Shown piece after piece: positions 1,398-64,000 of a stretch of DNA of 64,000 bases (position 1 is the first letter of the stretch; each line of letters starts with the position of its first letter). The notes under the pieces are model-generated. The model worked only from the letters and a program-made list of their open reading frames with translations, was not told the DNA's origin and searched no databases. Location: assembly GCA_964016885.1 (NCBI GenBank), contig OZ024760.1, positions 16,864,001 to 16,928,000 of the forward strand. The letters run 5' to 3'. A program made the position numbers and the translations under genes. The stretch comes from Eledone cirrhosa (Eukaryota).

Positions 1398-1593
1398 TAT
1401 AGTAATAATAATAAATTTGAAGACTAAAATCCAAAGAGGGCTCGATAAGGATAAATATATATCAAATATATAAGAACCGTAGAGCAAATATTTATTAAAA
1501 TAACAGATTAAAGTTTAAGCAAAGAATCGCTCCCGTTAAGGGTGAAAGCAGGCGATTCTTTGCTTAAACTTTAATCTGTTATTTTAATAAATA
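1398..1593. mobile_element. (TA)n-flanked fold-back element, family P1
   Basis: ~42-bp arms tatttattaaaataacag...gaatcgc / gcgattc...ttttaataaata. The unique part recurs almost identically at 28366-28476. Confidence 0.75.
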
Positions 1594-1628
1594 TATATAT
1601 ATATATATATATATATATATATATATAA

Positions 1629-1878
1629 TAAGAAAGTCAACAACACACTATATAACTATTCCATTACCAAAGGTTTCAGGACCGTAGACAATATTAACAT
1701 ATGTCAGATCGTTCATCAGACAGGGGAACGATCTAGACGTATGTTAATAATGTCTAGGTTCCTGAAACCTTTGGTAATGGAGTAGTTATATATTGTGTTT
1801 TCACTTTCTAATTAAATTGCTCTGTTCAATACATAGAACACTCTTTTTTTCCTTTGCTTTTTCTTCGGAATTACCTAA
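1629..1878. mobile_element. (TA)n-flanked fold-back element with hammerhead motif, family P2 (Penelope-like pLTR relic)
   Basis: Inverted arms centred near 1722. The minus arm reads cctgt-CTGATGA-stem II-GAAAC-ctttg-GTA-atgga. Homologous to 4331-4468 and 53950-54235. Confidence 0.75.
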
Positions 1879-2044
1879 TATATATATATATATATATATA
1901 TATATATATATATATATATATATATATATATATATATATATATATATATATATATTTGTTTGTTTTTAAACCGTTATAAGTCCAGTTATCACAGAAGTAT
2001 CAAAAAAGTAGTTCGATCCTGTTTATCTTTAAATTGCTACAAGA

Positions 2045-2707
2045 CACTATTTCTCCGAATTGAGAGATCACAGCCCCGATACTATAGACATGTGGTTAGG
2101 ATGTCTCAGGAAAGAATCACTGGACACATTTGTAGCTCTGAGATTAGAGAGTCACTCCTGGAAGATCCGCTACTTGTCCGAATTGAGAGATCACAGCTCT
2201 GATACTATAGACATGTGGTTAGGATGTCTCAGGAAAGAATCACTGGACACATTTGTAGCTCAGAGATCAGAGAGTCACTCCAGGTAGAGCTGCTACTTCT
2301 CCGAATTGAGAGATCACAGCTCTGATACTATAGACATGTGGTTAGGATGTCTCAGGAAAGAATCACTGGACACATTTGTAGCTCAGAGATCAGAGAGTCA
2401 CTCCAGGTAGAGCTGCTACTTCTCCGAATTGAGAGATCACAGCTCTGATACTATGGACATGTGGTTAGGATGTCTCAGGAAAGAATCATTGGACAGATTT
2501 TACGGGCAAAACCAACCGGCAAGACACCTAGAGGTAGACCCCGAGCAAGATGGTTGGATAACATCCATGAGCTTGGCTGATCGGGCTTGGTGATCCTACC
2601 GGAGCAGTTGGAGAGCAGTTGCTTCTGACAGGACCCACTGGAAGGATGGTTTGAGGACTCTGCCCCCACGACACCTCTCAGGAATAAATGGGCGAAGAAG
2701 AAGAAGA
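2045..2707 (+). mobile_element. RTE-clade (Expander/Rex3-like) LINE 3' fragment with a 123-bp segment repeated 4 times
   Basis: Translation LL.RIERSQ.RYYRHVVRMSQERI...KPTGKTPRGRPRARWLD matches RTE C-terminal motifs. Contains stops and a (GAA)n tail. gaattgagag recurs at 2057, 2180, 2303 and 2426. Confidence 0.85.
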
Positions 2708-3121
2708 ATACAAGCCCAGCTATCACAGAATTATCAACAAAAAAAAAAACAACAGAAAATAGTTCTATCCTATTTATTTTCAAATCTCAGAATTATTTTG
2801 ATGTTTCTACCAATACTTTCCAATACTTCGATATTTCCCATTGTCTCAAATGTTTATACAAACCACAGAATTATTAAAAATATTTCCATTGTTTACATCT
2901 TAATCTCCATCACGCCATTTATTTTTTTCACTCACTGTCCCAATTCTCTTTTCGATTTTTTTCGATATTACTACGCGCTGTCTGGAAAACCAAAAGAAAA
3001 AAAAAGCTTTAAAAAAAAAAAGGCAAAACAGAGAAACAACAAAATTACTAAAAGTAGTTTCATTGTTATCTCAACCCCAACTAATCTTTCAATTTTCTCA
3101 CATCATTAATTTCTGTCATCT

Positions 3122-3500
3122 AAGTCTCTCTCTCTCTCTCTCTCTGTCTTTCTCTTTCTCTCTGCCTCCCTGCCTGTTGCTATCTCTCTCTACGTCACTC
3201 TCTCTCTCTCTCTCTCTGAATCTATCTTTCTTTTTCTCTCTGCCTCCCTGTCTGTTGTTATGTCTCTCTCTCTCTCTCTCTCCGATTCTGTCTTTCTCTT
3301 TCTCTCTGCCTCCCTTCCTGTTGCTCTCTCTCTCTCATTCTCTCTCTCTCTACGTCACTCTCTCTCTCTCTCTCTCTCTCTCTCTCTACGTCACTCTCCC
3401 TCTCTATCTATCTCCATGTCTCTCTGTCAGTGTTTCGATGTCTCTCCCTCTCTTTCTGTCTCTCTCTACGATTCTATCTCTCTCTCTCTTCCCCTTCTTT
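3122..3500. repeat. (CT)n-rich compound microsatellite
   Basis: Direct reading. Confidence 0.9.
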
Positions 3501-3680
3501 CTTTGCAGCATAGAGTTATGACCCTTTACGTTCTGAGTTCAAATCCCGCCTAGGTTAACTTTACCTTTCATCCTTACGGGGGTCGATAAAATAAAGTACC
3601 AGTAATGTACTGGGGTCGATTTAATCGATTTTCCCCTCCCCCAAATTACTGGCCTTGTGCCTATACTGGAAATCATTATT
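3501..3680 (+). mobile_element. tRNA-derived SINE family A, 5'-truncated
   Basis: B-box GAGTTCAAATCC and conserved cctttcatccttacggggtcgataaaataaagtaccag domain. Confidence 0.9.
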
Positions 3681-3783
3681 TTTATTATAATTCTGTACAA
3701 TTTTTAAAAACATTTTCCTGTACAATTTCTCATTATTTTTCTGGACAATGGCCGAATATTTCTATAGATATATTTAGAACAAA
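3675..3783. repeat. Dispersed AT-rich repeat, second copy at ~15452-15552
   Basis: ttttctggacaatggccgaatatttctatagatatatttagaacaaa is shared by both sites. Confidence 0.75.
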
Positions 3784-61649: not shown

Positions 61650-61772
61650 GAAATATACACAATTTAACAACAGGTTTGCGGTCGTGCCCTTGGCAGTGGA
61701 GACTTCTGGTGTTCTTGGGCCTATGGCTACCTCCCTACTCACCAGCATAGGCGCTGAGCTGACTACCTGTAG
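61650..61772 (+). mobile_element. CRE-like endonuclease fragment
   Basis: KYTQFNNRFAVVPLAVETSGVLGPMATSLLTSIGAEL, homologous to 11200-11316. Confidence 0.8.
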
Positions 61773-62709
61773 CAGTGTTAAACCAAAACCAGTGAAGTAT
61801 AAAAAAACAGGTTGTTTACTTTAGTGGAAAGGAAAAGAATGAAGATAAACTGTGTTTTATTTCTAGTCGGTTTCTACGGCAACTCTATAAAGTAATAGCT
61901 TTCACAGGTGATAGATGAGATAGGGCGATTTATATATACATAAATATACATACATGCATATATATATATATATATATATACATGCACATATAAAATTTAT
62001 ATATATATATATATATATATATTTTTTTTTTTTTTTTTTTTATTACACGGCTCAGAAAAACTTCTTTCTTGGAGCTATTTAATTATAAGAGACTATTTTG
62101 ACTTTCTAACTCAATATCATATGTATATATATATGTATATATATATATATGTATATGTATACATACACATAAGAAATTTATATATATATATATATATATA
62201 TATATACATACACATATGAAATATATATATATATATACACATACACATAAGAAATGTATATATATATATATATATATATACATACACATATGAAATTTAT
62301 ATCGAAACGGCTTCAGCTCTGCCGTCGGGGTCCTACTCGTTCCTATATATATATATATATATATATATATATATATATATATATATACTATCGTCTAACC
62401 CATGCTAGCGTGGAAGAATGAACGTAAAACGGTGATGATGATGATATATATATATACATACATACACATAAAATTTATATATGTATATATATGAGAAAGA
62501 GAGTGAGTGGGGGGAAAGGGGAGGTTATAACTGAAATTAAGATAACTTGTGCAGGTTATCTAGGGTGTGCAGTGATTGCTAAAATAATAGGATTTAAAAT
62601 CAATGGGGTAATAGATAAACTAGAACAATGTCAATAGAAGCGTTAGTTTTTATTTTAATTCGTTGCCTATGTTTTATAGGTGTTTCTACCTATAAAACAT
62701 AGGCAATGT

Positions 62710-62820
62710 ATTGGCAGTGTCGTTAGAACTTCAGATAGAATGATTTGCTGTATTCCTTCCGTCTCTATATGATCTGAGTTCAAAACCCCGACGAGGTCAA
62801 CTTTGCATTTTATCCTCTCT
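62710..62820 (+). mobile_element. SINE A subfamily with the head that matches the 27-bp satellite
   Basis: ttggcagtgtcgttagaacttcagatagaatg. Confidence 0.75.
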
Positions 62821-62994
62821 GTCGCTCTTTTTCCCCCGTTTCTCCCTTTCTCTCTAGAGCTCTCTCTAGAGCTCTTTCTCACTCTCTCTCTCTCTAGAGC
62901 GAGAGCTCTAGAGCGAGAGCTCTAGAGCTTTTTCTCTCTGCTTGGGAAGCATCCGATAATGTTGACAAGTTCTCCTTTTCGGGTAGTGTTTTCG

Positions 62995-63125
62995 ATGCTC
63001 AGAGAGTGGGATTGGTCGAGTGCAAGGCCTTTCCCCACTTAAAAAACCTTCAAAGCACAGGCATTGCTTGTTCAGGATCTGTTACAAGCGATTGCAGTAC
63101 TCTTAGCAGAGTCTGCAACCGTCAT
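62995..63125 (+). mobile_element. Diverged K-related element lacking the zinc-finger segment
   Basis: gagagtggggattgg...gcacaggcattgctt...gtactc-ttagca-gagt, then (TA)n. Confidence 0.55.
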
Positions 63126-63152
63126 ATATATATATATATATATATATATATA

Positions 63153-63510
63153 ATAGTAGAACACTAGTGGGTTATATCCGTAGTAGTAGAGCACTCAGTC
63201 CATGGGACGAGTTTGGTAGAAGTAGTTCCACAACAGTTAGTTCACCACACCGAGAACAAATTGTTTCACCTAATACGGATCATTCGCTCGGTCTGAATGA
63301 AGTTGTACGGAAAAGGAAAAACAACTGTACGAATACGCATGTGCAGAAACAGTCACCTTTCCTGGGGAAGGTAGTGACTGTTTTTGCACATGCGTATTCG
63401 AACAGTTGCTGTGTTTTTCCTTTTCCGTACAACTTCATTTAGTTAGTTGATGAACCGAATAAGGTAAAACAATTTATTCTTGCTATGGTGAACTGTTGTG
63501 GAAACAACGA
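63153..63510. mobile_element. ~140-bp-arm fold-back element with two degenerate hammerheads (family P11)
   Basis: Centre ~63363. Minus arm ccgag-CGAATGA-tcc..ggt-GAAAC-aattt-GTT-ctcgg. Plus arm TTGATGA-acc..ggt-AAAAC. Confidence 0.7.
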
Positions 63511-63869
63511 ATGAAAAAACTTACCTCTTAATTTTAAATCTTTAATTTTTAGTTTTTAATTCTTATTAATTCTTTTTAATTGTAATACTCAACATTTGAT
63601 CAGATGAATTTTACTAATACATCGAAACCGGTAATACTTTATATACATTATAAAACTCTTTTTATTTTAAAGAATTGTCCCTCTCATTTTTTCAATAATG
63701 TCATCTTTTCAATAATGTATCTTTGACGAATCAAAGAAAGGAAAAAAAAGAAAAACAGACCCTAAAATATATTTTCCGTGCTATTTCTAATATCTCCTTT
63801 TCTCTCTCTAATATCTCCTTTTCTCTCTCTCATATATATATATATATATATATATATATATATATATAT

Positions 63870-64000
63870 AAGTTTATCCCGGATTGAATTGGGGGTAACC
63901 ACAGTAAGTAAGGTACTCAATACATAGCAGAGTATAAATATTTAATATAGAAATGGCTTTTACAGGACTAGAAATGTTTTATTCGGGAGAAATCATCAGG
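63870..64000 (-). mobile_element. Family P7 copy showing the full CTGATGA core, runs off the window
   Basis: Reverse complement cCTGATGAtttc(tccc)gaat-AAAAC-atttcta-GTC-ctgta. Confidence 0.7.

Follow-up and report, generated by a model that had tools for sequence, protein, structure and literature searches.

The window, a 64,000-nt stretch of Eledone cirrhosa DNA, contains 33 short non-coding pieces, which fall into about 15 families (A, B, B2, C, D, E, F/F2, G, H, I, J, Lx, M, N, and P). A sequence-only reading of the same DNA had proposed more than 20 such inserts from at least ten unrelated families, and both counts were borne out. The pieces are listed below by family, with window positions and strand.

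47707..47924, +: family A fold-back, matching the terminal 138 nt of the 3.53-kb unit seen in L169/L170; the inverted arm (47707-47765) has no tail and is joined through 47766-47786 to the sense arm at 47787-47924 (putative start site, +1, through the hammerhead 3' half to the distal priming site); extra C/G on both arms (at 47766 and 47786)
28154..28347, +: family A fold-back, older subfamily, without the CUGANGA half
34248..34448, -: family A fold-back, without the CUGANGA half
58620..58798, -: family A fold-back with shorter arms
10820..10990, -: family A, decayed fold-back
59030..59131, +: family A tail; its inverted arm is very short
51787..51850, -: family A, tailless arm alone
62290..62343, +: family A, tailless arm alone
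36142..36330, +: family C fold-back; the sense arm (36201-36330) has the tail, and both arms end within the hammerhead core (+9)
63870..64000, -: family C fold-back running beyond the window end, core G12 mutated
53745..53900, +: family C, decayed fold-back
29665..29795, +: family C, single old arm
53950..54233, -: family B fold-back; the tail is on the arm at 54119-53951, and the tailless arm (54123-54233) has a complete hammerhead at 54135 with a 2-nt internal loop at the stem II base
1627..1877, +: family B fold-back; tailless arm with a complete hammerhead (core 1719, minus strand)
4331..4468, +: family B, single arm beginning in loop II
33934..34184, +: family B2 fold-back; complete hammerhead (core 34026, minus strand) on the tailless arm, which extends further 5' than the other arm
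4489..4554, -: family B2, tail alone
18768..18968, +: family D fold-back; the hammerhead of this copy has decayed
28577..28886, -: family E fold-back, hammerhead decayed in this copy (family core U3-A8)
63152..63510, -: family G fold-back with long arms, core decayed in this copy
1398..1590, -: family H fold-back beginning in stem II (family core CAGAAGA, U4 to A)
28368..28495, -: family H tail with a short inverted arm
53496..53705, +: family I; a tail in inverted orientation (53496-53538) adjoins a longer arm that has no tail but holds a complete hammerhead, at 53606; the two arms do not overlap
33812..33860, -: family I, tail alone
48145..48360, -: family M fold-back with tail; no hammerhead seen
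13250..13330, +: family F minimal hammerhead with palindromic stem III (core 13265); no fold-back and no gene tie
56940..57060, +: family F, decayed
59470..59620, -: family F2 minimal hammerhead with a decayed stem I
7520..7768, +: family N end with a hammerhead remnant, split by a TA tract
54727..54894, +: family N tail
53315..53476, -: family P end, flanked by TA tracts
63540..63790, +: family Lx end, hammerhead decayed in this copy (family core U3-A8)
44110..44190, +: family J tail

The inverted duplications described earlier were confirmed, with 13 TA-associated fold-backs showing arm identities of 78-98%. Insertion in or beside TA tracts was likewise upheld: an insert end lay within 15 nt of a (TA)4+ tract in 28/33 pieces, compared with 11% of non-TA positions, although the former figure is partly circular, many insert boundaries having been drawn at tracts. 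The sequence-only reading had also given most inserts a type I hammerhead layout, which holds at the family level but not for most copies in the window. Among the 13 positions that it named, the motif is complete on one arm at five (1629, 13260, 33938, 53598, and 53950), decayed at three (18768, 28638, and 63153), and wholly or partly lacks its CUGANGA half at the other five (28152, 34248, 47706, 58619, and 36141), because these copies begin downstream of that half. A complete hammerhead motif is present in long copies of families A (with U3-A8), B, B2, C, D, E, G, and I, while family H has U4 changed to A.

The hammerhead layout is far more frequent than in shuffled sequence: the window plus 4 kb has four complete motifs (0.13 after shuffling), and four other regions totalling 800 kb have 75 (about 1.1 expected). 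Density across the four regions was 50-140 per Mb; extrapolating 75 per 800 kb to 3.0 Gb gives a large ribozyme load of some 280,000 motifs. The core also covaries, positions 3 and 8 being C-G in 65 cases, U-A in 10, and any other pair in at most 3. A strict pattern produced only 1-2 matches in the window, and rules allowing U3-A8 and mismatches were needed. In an Rfam scan of the window, no hammerhead was present among 150 of the 545 matches, those 150 being microRNA-model noise on microsatellites. On the genome, RF00163 picked out 18 of 74 scored candidates, all from one family that is absent from the window.

Linkage to Hydra-clade genes

Families A, C, G, H, and I join genes of Hydra-clade Penelope-like elements, which encode a reverse transcriptase (RT) and a GIY-YIG endonuclease, the linkage that the sequence-only reading had suggested looking for. 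Family A is the terminus of a young 3.53-kb unit (3,528-3,547 bp) that occurs in tandem arrays with intact 784-codon frames. Its protein, 717 aa from the first Met in a single frame, carries the YRDD RT motif and a C-terminal endonuclease (NVIYQC..KAYIG), together with RLRWRTFF (RWK, K to R), SDKTGN (DKT), CNCPDRSIC (CxCx5C linker), CNLC (CxxC), and CKH (CxH); the last three motifs follow the same pattern in the H and K frames, and the CCHH motif is absent as judged by eye. Assignment to the Hydra clade was made by comparing motifs by eye with Hydra-1_Obim. The whole family A protein had no Pfam match, one piece of it gave a weak RVT_1 match (E 0.004), no PDB match was found, and a PF00078 search brought up other retroelements. 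Family C is joined to a Hydra gene at three loci (L295, L306, and L375), family G lies downstream of a Hydra endonuclease frame (C1 sample), and family H lies downstream of a Hydra gene.

The Hydra clade, including Hydra-1_Obim of Octopus bimaculoides, and its hammerheads and TA targeting have been published (Craig et al. 2021, PMC8557442). In line with that description, the elements seen here have a single RT frame with a C-terminal GIY-YIG domain and RWK-like, DKT, CxCx5C, CxxC, and CxH motifs; a canonical hammerhead near the terminus, often with a stem II base mismatch; and (TA)n insertion with tandem and inverted 5'-truncated copies and a one-sided tail. Unlike Hydra-1_oBim, whose hammerhead is listed there, none of the families contains that sequence when compared by eye. 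Family A (about 3.53 kb) and another family (4.9 kb) are longer than the clade length of less than 3 kb, which PMC8557442 gives as typical and not defining.

Among the loci examined, 10 of the 15 families (B, B2, D, E, F, J, Lx, M, N, and P) had no gene link, and the tail hairpin of the gene-linked families is also found in B, B2, D, and M. A gene link for family N was doubtful, the frame being A-like, and is not claimed. A 3.1-kb period beside a family B copy (L372) results from a local duplication and does not mark an element unit. Family A array units differ by 0-1 base in one array, by 3 bases plus a gap in another, and by 3-9 between loci; a rolling-circle origin of the arrays is not established by these differences. 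For the family C tail, a pattern search found 6,773 exact copies and a DNA similarity search gave none.

Collectively, the description of many, very dense families of ribozyme-bearing, TA-targeting, Penelope-like retroelements was right. Their status as self-standing micro-retroelements was not, as A, C, G, H, and I are the leader or terminal segment of 3-5-kb Hydra-clade elements, and the window inserts are not a new class of micro-element. The idea of an uncatalogued radiation was overstated, since PMC8557442 already catalogues the clade, one member of it from an octopus, and the hammerheads and (TA)n targeting of these elements. The inserts are short, numerous, inverted, and TA-flanked, as would be expected of miniature inverted-repeat transposable elements (MITEs) or other DNA transposons with terminal inverted repeats. 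However, their arms meet centrally at variable junctions, the tail is one-sided, no fixed terminal inverted repeats are shared, the ribozyme core covaries, and the sequence is continuous with upstream RT and GIY-YIG genes. This linkage has refuted the MITE reading for A, C, G, H, and I, and we regard it overall as scarcely credible.

The 5' stop point and the two arms

Short copies end at a fixed 5' point, a new observation. Exact 32-mers of family A, whose counts are sensitive to subfamily differences, occur in the whole genome 1,636 times at -122, 2,075 times at -44, 25,861 times at +4, 19,719 times in the tail, and 151 times beyond the distal site. In long copies of families A, C, and E, a TATA-like box lies 30-32 nt upstream of the stop point, which is an initiator-like A; family H stops at a TT/TC-AGTT initiator, and no TATA box was evident in B, G, H, or I. 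The stop point falls in loop II of the hammerhead in A, at the stem I edge in C and H, and about 35 nt upstream in E. A start of the short copies at the ribozyme cleavage site was rejected, as the copies run through that site.

The base preceding +1 was counted by hand in the first 100 arms ending at that point in each of four families. It was G in 81/100 arms of family C (of 1,171), 51/100 of family H (of 1,888), and 58/100 of family E (of 506), and family A (of 5,109) had 48 G, 43 C, and 9 A, the C being largely derived from the other arm. Controls at +6, which cover families C and H, gave G in 18/100 (first 100 of 165 arms) and 20/100 (first 100 of 397 arms), respectively. Family C arms that directly abut TA had G in seven cases and A in three, so the other arm need not be the source of the G, and at several family C loci G was present on both arms. 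Many family A arms end at +4 to +7 rather than at +1, and in family E copies passing +1 (2,815) outnumber exact +1 stops (506). No G excess was seen in family B (109 matches, chiefly from long copies in a subfamily whose base at this position differs). The extra, untemplated G argues for a capped sense template primed twice, with a start site and cap deduced from the DNA, and its position at a promoter-like site makes it likely that the fold-backs are abortive cDNA of a capped mRNA 5' end.

An unlikely variant of this reading keeps the Hydra elements and two primings but takes the 5' end to be an uncapped processed RNA end or a stall at the hammerhead, the extra base being an untemplated C. 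Every stop point does lie in or near the ribozyme fold, reverse transcriptases append untemplated bases at template ends, and family B shows no clear G excess. Nevertheless, the G excess is specific to +1, and the stop follows the TATA box or initiator with no fixed hammerhead position. The cleavage site is no hot spot: about 8/144 arm ends in A and 2/69 in C lie within 4 nt of it. Furthermore, only about 8% of arms pass +1, and these long arms are paired, 64 of the first 100 upstream matches in family A falling in 28 two-armed insertions by hand count; independent stalling would not yield pairs.

Another route, proposed for rotifer Penelope elements (PMC3846280), is that a single cDNA folds back and self-primes on an antisense template, producing a head-to-head palindrome. 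Consistent with this, arm lengths were equal within 2 nt in 30/64 two-armed copies of A and 16/29 of C in a survey that covers copies with a TA tract within 330-420 nt. Variants were common to both arms in 49/115 (A) and 43/79 (C) cases, compared with 10% and 8% in permutations, a pattern that counts for the reading with two cDNAs as well and that gene conversion could mimic, and slippage repeats at the junctions show that cDNA ends re-prime. In contrast, the tailless arm extends beyond its tail-bearing partner on the 5' side in 40/121 two-armed copies (19/64 in A, 9/29 in C, and 12/28 in B), an inequality that later deletions in palindrome centres could mimic; the arms do not overlap in the family I insert at 53496-53705 or at L044; and the additional G found at the start site of the sense strand indicates a capped sense template. 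We therefore consider self-priming highly improbable as the source of the fold-backs. A family B "long" class and values of -85 to -101 were artefacts of a fold-back reference and were ignored.

The fold-back centre varies between copies, so the fold-back is formed anew at each insertion. Since a fold-back query retrieves similarly shaped copies, counts were based on tail-only and pattern sets. These unbiased sets bear on whether the short units propagate themselves as non-autonomous micro-elements or retrozymes, each being transcribed and copied whole. Such an origin is possible for the ten families lacking a gene tie. No long copy of family D was found among 30 sampled, L371, outside the window, is a 299-nt non-coding tandem array that stems from family A, and about 14 of the 25 best family C matches have one common centre, though the query was biased. 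However, centres vary in the unbiased sets, the promoter is absent from the copied part, long copies are known for A, B, C, E, G, H, and I, and short A copies are unable to form the ribozyme; propagation as units is thus very unlikely.

Proposed mechanism and related systems

We consider it probable that, with five families joined to Hydra-clade genes, the fold-backs are abortive capped-leader cDNAs, primed twice at nicked (TA)n and joined head to head. A promoter (TATA at about -30, initiator A) would start a capped mRNA at or inside the hammerhead. The enzyme would cut both strands of a TA tract, an enzymology deduced from fixed ends that are observed directly, and RT would start at two fixed leader sites, about +59 and +139 in family A, each with a TAT match to the target. 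The two sites flank a conserved bulged hairpin, a candidate for recognition. Because both priming sites are near the RNA 5' end, each cDNA would run off after 60-140 nt, copying the cap as an extra C, and the cDNA ends would be joined with trimming, slippage repeats, or filler to give an inverted duplication with a tail on one side. The hammerhead would be carried along because it lies between the start site and the priming sites, and its cleavage would be unnecessary for such copies. Long and full-length copies would require an RNA that is read-through, tandem, or circular and thus has priming sites downstream of the gene.

Parts of this scheme have precedents. Poseidon_Ac (PAc) of Anolis uses two internal RT start sites in vitro and extends both strands, with no need for cleavage (Frangieh et al. 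2024, PMC11167929). As here, two fixed internal RT start sites near the mRNA 5' end, downstream of the hammerhead, define the tail, and both target strands are cut and extended. PAc differs in belonging to another clade and in starting without homology, in contrast to the TAT match at each start site here, and that study did not cover run-off at the cap or joining of two cDNAs. In L1 insertions, PMC11702581 describes an extra G as a cap mark. As with the fold-backs, two target-primed L1 cDNAs are end-joined and an extra G occurs at full-length 5' junctions; unlike them, L1 is primed at the poly(A) end and its inversions involve no duplication, according to PMC3996531 and PMC11702581. Here both primings are at fixed leader sites and the overlap is duplicated. 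Metazoan non-LTR retrozymes, as presented in PMC7229834 and bioRxiv 10.64898/2026.07.22.740005, are also short non-coding repeats that carry type I hammerheads and have a relationship to Penelope pseudo-LTRs, but they form head-to-tail arrays with a ribozyme per unit. The window inserts are single or head-to-head, mostly without an intact ribozyme; none forms a head-to-tail array with a complete hammerhead per unit, and only L371, outside the window, fits that description.

The proposed product also resembles the minus-strand strong-stop DNA of LTR retroelements, a cDNA whose synthesis begins close to the 5' end of the RNA and finishes by run-off at the cap. Strong-stop DNA is tRNA-primed and then transferred to the RNA 3' end; unlike it, the leader cDNA would be target-primed and integrated as is. 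Run-off at a cap or start site in Penelope-like elements was not found in print in the freely accessible literature. Penelope-like elements are telomerase's closest relatives among retroelements, and the proposed scheme bears on how they make inverted and tandem copies. A broader reading, which we hold tentatively and with slightly more doubt than belief, is that Penelope-like elements are target-primed "strong-stop" retrotransposons, priming on both nicked target strands close to the capped start of their sense mRNA, whose default product would be an integrated leader cDNA pair and whose full-length copies would require an RNA holding the leader twice, made by read-through or as a hammerhead-made circle. 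If true, one rule would account for pseudo-LTRs, inverted 5' copies, and tails, as well as for the very large numbers of solo hammerheads that animal genomes contain and for the origin of retrozymes (L371), and whether the start site lies inside or before the hammerhead would switch self-cleavage on or off for a given transcript. The reaction products are recorded in this genome by young insertions in the tens of thousands, and putative start and priming sites, a hairpin that is a candidate for recognition, and an intact enzyme are now supplied for direct tests. Repeat catalogues should be used with caution, as they will list leader copies as separate MITE- or SINE-like families.

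Inserts at TA tracts and their hammerheads

The sequence-only reading had proposed more than 20 short inserts, of at least ten families, at TA tracts. In the microsatellite-rich window, in which no host gene was evident (genome size, 3.0 Gb), 33 insert pieces of about 15 families were catalogued, and a (TA)4+ tract lay within 15 nt of an end in 28 of them, bearing out both estimates. Self-comparison with simple repeats masked revealed 21 inverted pairs in the window, 13 of which were fold-backs of TA-associated elements, that is, head-to-head pairs of arms with a tail on one arm only. 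Other repeats in the window were as follows.

6550-7148, 7953-8173, 38983-39610 and 42108-42618: TA-flanked 600-bp repeat with a C2H2-like frame (CSVCTR..KSH..AH) at its end and no fold-back; probably the end of a LINE
3501-3680, 9720-9908, 10626-10801, 14714-15200, 48850-50390, 57113-57677 and others: very abundant SINE-like repeat, with a 45-bp tandem head in some copies (9342-9780) and other copies inverted
37718-38433: broken RTE-like reverse transcriptase end, flanked by TA tracts
30402-32573: 27/54-bp minisatellite array, about 2 kb
5035-5149 with 7368-7482, and 11206-11297 with 61670-61761: two more small dispersed repeats adjoining TA tracts, in which no hammerhead was seen

Hammerheads were scanned for with tolerant type I rules and their frequency was compared with that in shuffled sequence. 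Four complete motifs were found in the window plus 4 kb (0.13 in shuffles) and 75 in 800 kb outside it (about 1.1 in shuffles), far more than expected; a minimal hammerhead at 13265 is a fifth complete motif. When core positions 3 and 8 were left unconstrained, structured matches carried C-G in 65 cases, U-A in 10, and every other pair in at most 3. The two positions therefore covary, as is known for Penelope ribozymes according to PMC4209133. The hammerhead layout attributed to most inserts was whole in 5 of the 13 examples originally listed, while 3 are decayed and 5 begin downstream of the first core half. The Rfam model Hammerhead_1 scored family K only, another Hydra family (L031-L048 and L132-L136) with a 1.3-kb AT-rich 3' region, which is absent from the window. 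Separately, three U3-A8 hammerheads (named for their core pair) in sampled stretches of other contigs (C1 sample, 179619-180803, L219-L220; C10 sample, 53879) are about 590 nt apart and represent a candidate retrozyme family.

Linkage to Hydra-clade Penelope-like genes

A search using only the tail of the family A copy at 47707 gave 30 loci, of which 2 were long. Upstream of the insert, long family A copies contain the remaining hammerhead and a 3' region of 1.2 kb, which follows a reverse transcriptase and GIY-YIG endonuclease (RT + GIY-YIG) frame. A piece of this reverse transcriptase gave 26,878 first-look candidates in the genome, and many of the 150 scored had 784-codon open frames. The coding units, about 3.53 kb, occur both as single copies and in tandem arrays, and six of the seven compared showed at least 99% identity. 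Their protein carries RWR, DKT, CxCx5C, CxxC and CxH motifs; motifs of this kind (RWK-type, DKT, CxCx5C, CxxC, CxH) define the Hydra clade in PMC8557442, whose supplement lists Hydra-1_Obim with a (TA)n target and a hammerhead. Protein similarity to Hydra-1_Obim, together with a SINE of octopus type, suggests an octopus-like host. The family C tail continues into a Hydra frame at L295, L306 and L375, and families G, H and I are placed after Hydra endonuclease frames. The suggested RT + GIY-YIG linkage thus holds for five families (A, C, G, H and I) and was not found for ten in the loci examined: longer copies of families B and E exist with no gene frame reached, and none of 30 sampled family D copies was long. 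A Hydra-clade origin of the gene-linked families is very likely. At L373 and other loci, distinct Hydra families are nested in the TA flanks of one another, suggesting that TA tracts are growing insertion islands.

Fixed 5' and 3' ends

Exact 32-mers along family A, a count in which older copies are under-represented, occurred in the genome 1,636 times at -122, 2,075 times at -44, 25,861 times at +4, 19,719 times in the tail and 151 times beyond the distal site (offsets from +1, the fixed 5' stop point of short copies). The profile is a plateau with a sharp 5' step at its edge. Long copies have at the step an A whose surroundings resemble an initiator; it follows TATTTAAA in family A, TATAAATA in family C and TATAAAA in family E at a distance of 30-32 nt, and we take these boxes and the initiator context to match the promoter consensus. 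Family H has an initiator-type sequence (TT/TC-AGTT) at the step and lacks a clear TATA. The step lies in loop II in family A and at the first stem I base in families C and H; in family E it precedes the core by about 35 nt. These positions indicate that the step follows the putative promoter and not the ribozyme fold. The predicted ribozyme cleavage site was no hot spot of arm ends.

For arms that stop exactly at +1, the untemplated base in front was counted by hand among the first 100 matches listed per family, long-copy variants included, using patterns that omit the templated base and discarding matches with an A ten places upstream. Among the matches listed, G preceded +1 in 81 of 100 for family C (18 of 100 at a +6 control), 51 of 100 for family H (20 of 100 at +6) and 58 of 100 for family E; family A had 48 G, 43 C and 9 A. 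A G excess is therefore present in three to four families. In family C, G is also found right after the TA tract (7 versus 3), and both arms of one insertion carry it; in the window, the 47707 copy has the extra G on both arms. In L1 insertions, an extra G is described as a sign of a copied mRNA cap (PMC11702581).

The 3' ends of arms fall at two fixed sites, each of which matches the target over TAT or ATA. In family A these are at about +59 and +139, which is 18 nt and about 98 nt, respectively, downstream of the predicted ribozyme cleavage site, with 48 of 66 inverted arms ending at offsets 58-59 and 2 of 66 at 139. In tandem arrays of family A, the distal site runs on into the 5' untranslated region and then the gene, placing both priming sites at the front of the mRNA. 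They match the two internal start sites that create the tail of an Anolis element in vitro (PMC11167929). Of 10 families examined, 9 possess an RCTC...GAGY stem between the two sites; in most of them it contains a bulge of 1-2 nt, and both of its sides change between families. The coral Hydra-2_Amil likewise has it. We infer that this stem may be a recognition hairpin.

Unequal arms and a proposed twice-primed leader

Among two-armed copies, the 5' extent of the tailless arm exceeds that of the tail-bearing arm in 19 of 64 for family A, 9 of 29 for family C and 12 of 28 for family B, which excludes a single fold-back cDNA unless deletion followed. An alternative in the literature, in which an antisense template is copied by self-priming (PMC3846280), would suit the equal-armed copies; it conflicts with these unequal arms and with a G on the sense side. 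The two arms had variants in common in 49 of 115 cases (family A) and 43 of 79 (family C), compared with 10% and 8% when arms were permuted. Long arms came in pairs: 28 two-armed insertions account for 64 of the upstream matches among the first 100 listed, so that length is set by the template and not by chance stalling. Nineteen loci with a 5' untranslated region were judged by eye: in 4, a gene-bearing arm that begins close to +1 adjoins an inverted arm that is short and tailless, and another 4 begin inside the tail, as an RNA carrying a leader at each end would be expected to give.

Junctions show trimming and slippage repeats, and telomeric repeats once. At L007, a family A locus, an 11-nt unit occurs four times at the cDNA end, a telomerase-like slippage. 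At L273 (about 1400-1440, element strand), TTAGGG repeats, which we take to be telomeric, lie where the two arms of a copy of family B meet, as would result from telomerase extending a free cDNA end.

The gene linkage of five families, the fixed priming sites, the fixed 5' step, the G excess in three to four families and the unequal, co-inherited arms are direct observations, and we propose from the DNA that a capped sense mRNA would start at +1 and be copied twice at a doubly nicked (TA)n target. One cDNA would be displaced by the other, the enzyme not being known to have RNase H, and end-joining would then unite the two head to head; long copies would derive from read-through or circular RNA templates. 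This model of twice-primed, joined leader cDNA is, as a whole, likely. It sits poorly with family B, where a G excess before +1 is not clear, with family E, where leader copies do not dominate, with the four families in which no TATA box was seen, and with the ten families for which the loci examined gave no gene link. As a corollary, capped family A transcripts would be unable to form the ribozyme, and those of families C and H would start with a whole one.

The clade, the ribozymes, the target and the inverted structure have been published already. New here are the product class and the mechanistic evidence, namely the start-site step and the cap-like G, which we did not find for Penelope-like elements in the literature searched.

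At L371 (G000:C2:356029000-356033500), seven head-to-tail 299-nt units and a final partial unit have a (TA)n end at the distal priming site. The units derive from family A, have lost the gene and part of loop II, and each contain a complete U3-A8 hammerhead; judged by its sequence, this is a retrozyme-like array arisen from a coding Penelope-like element.
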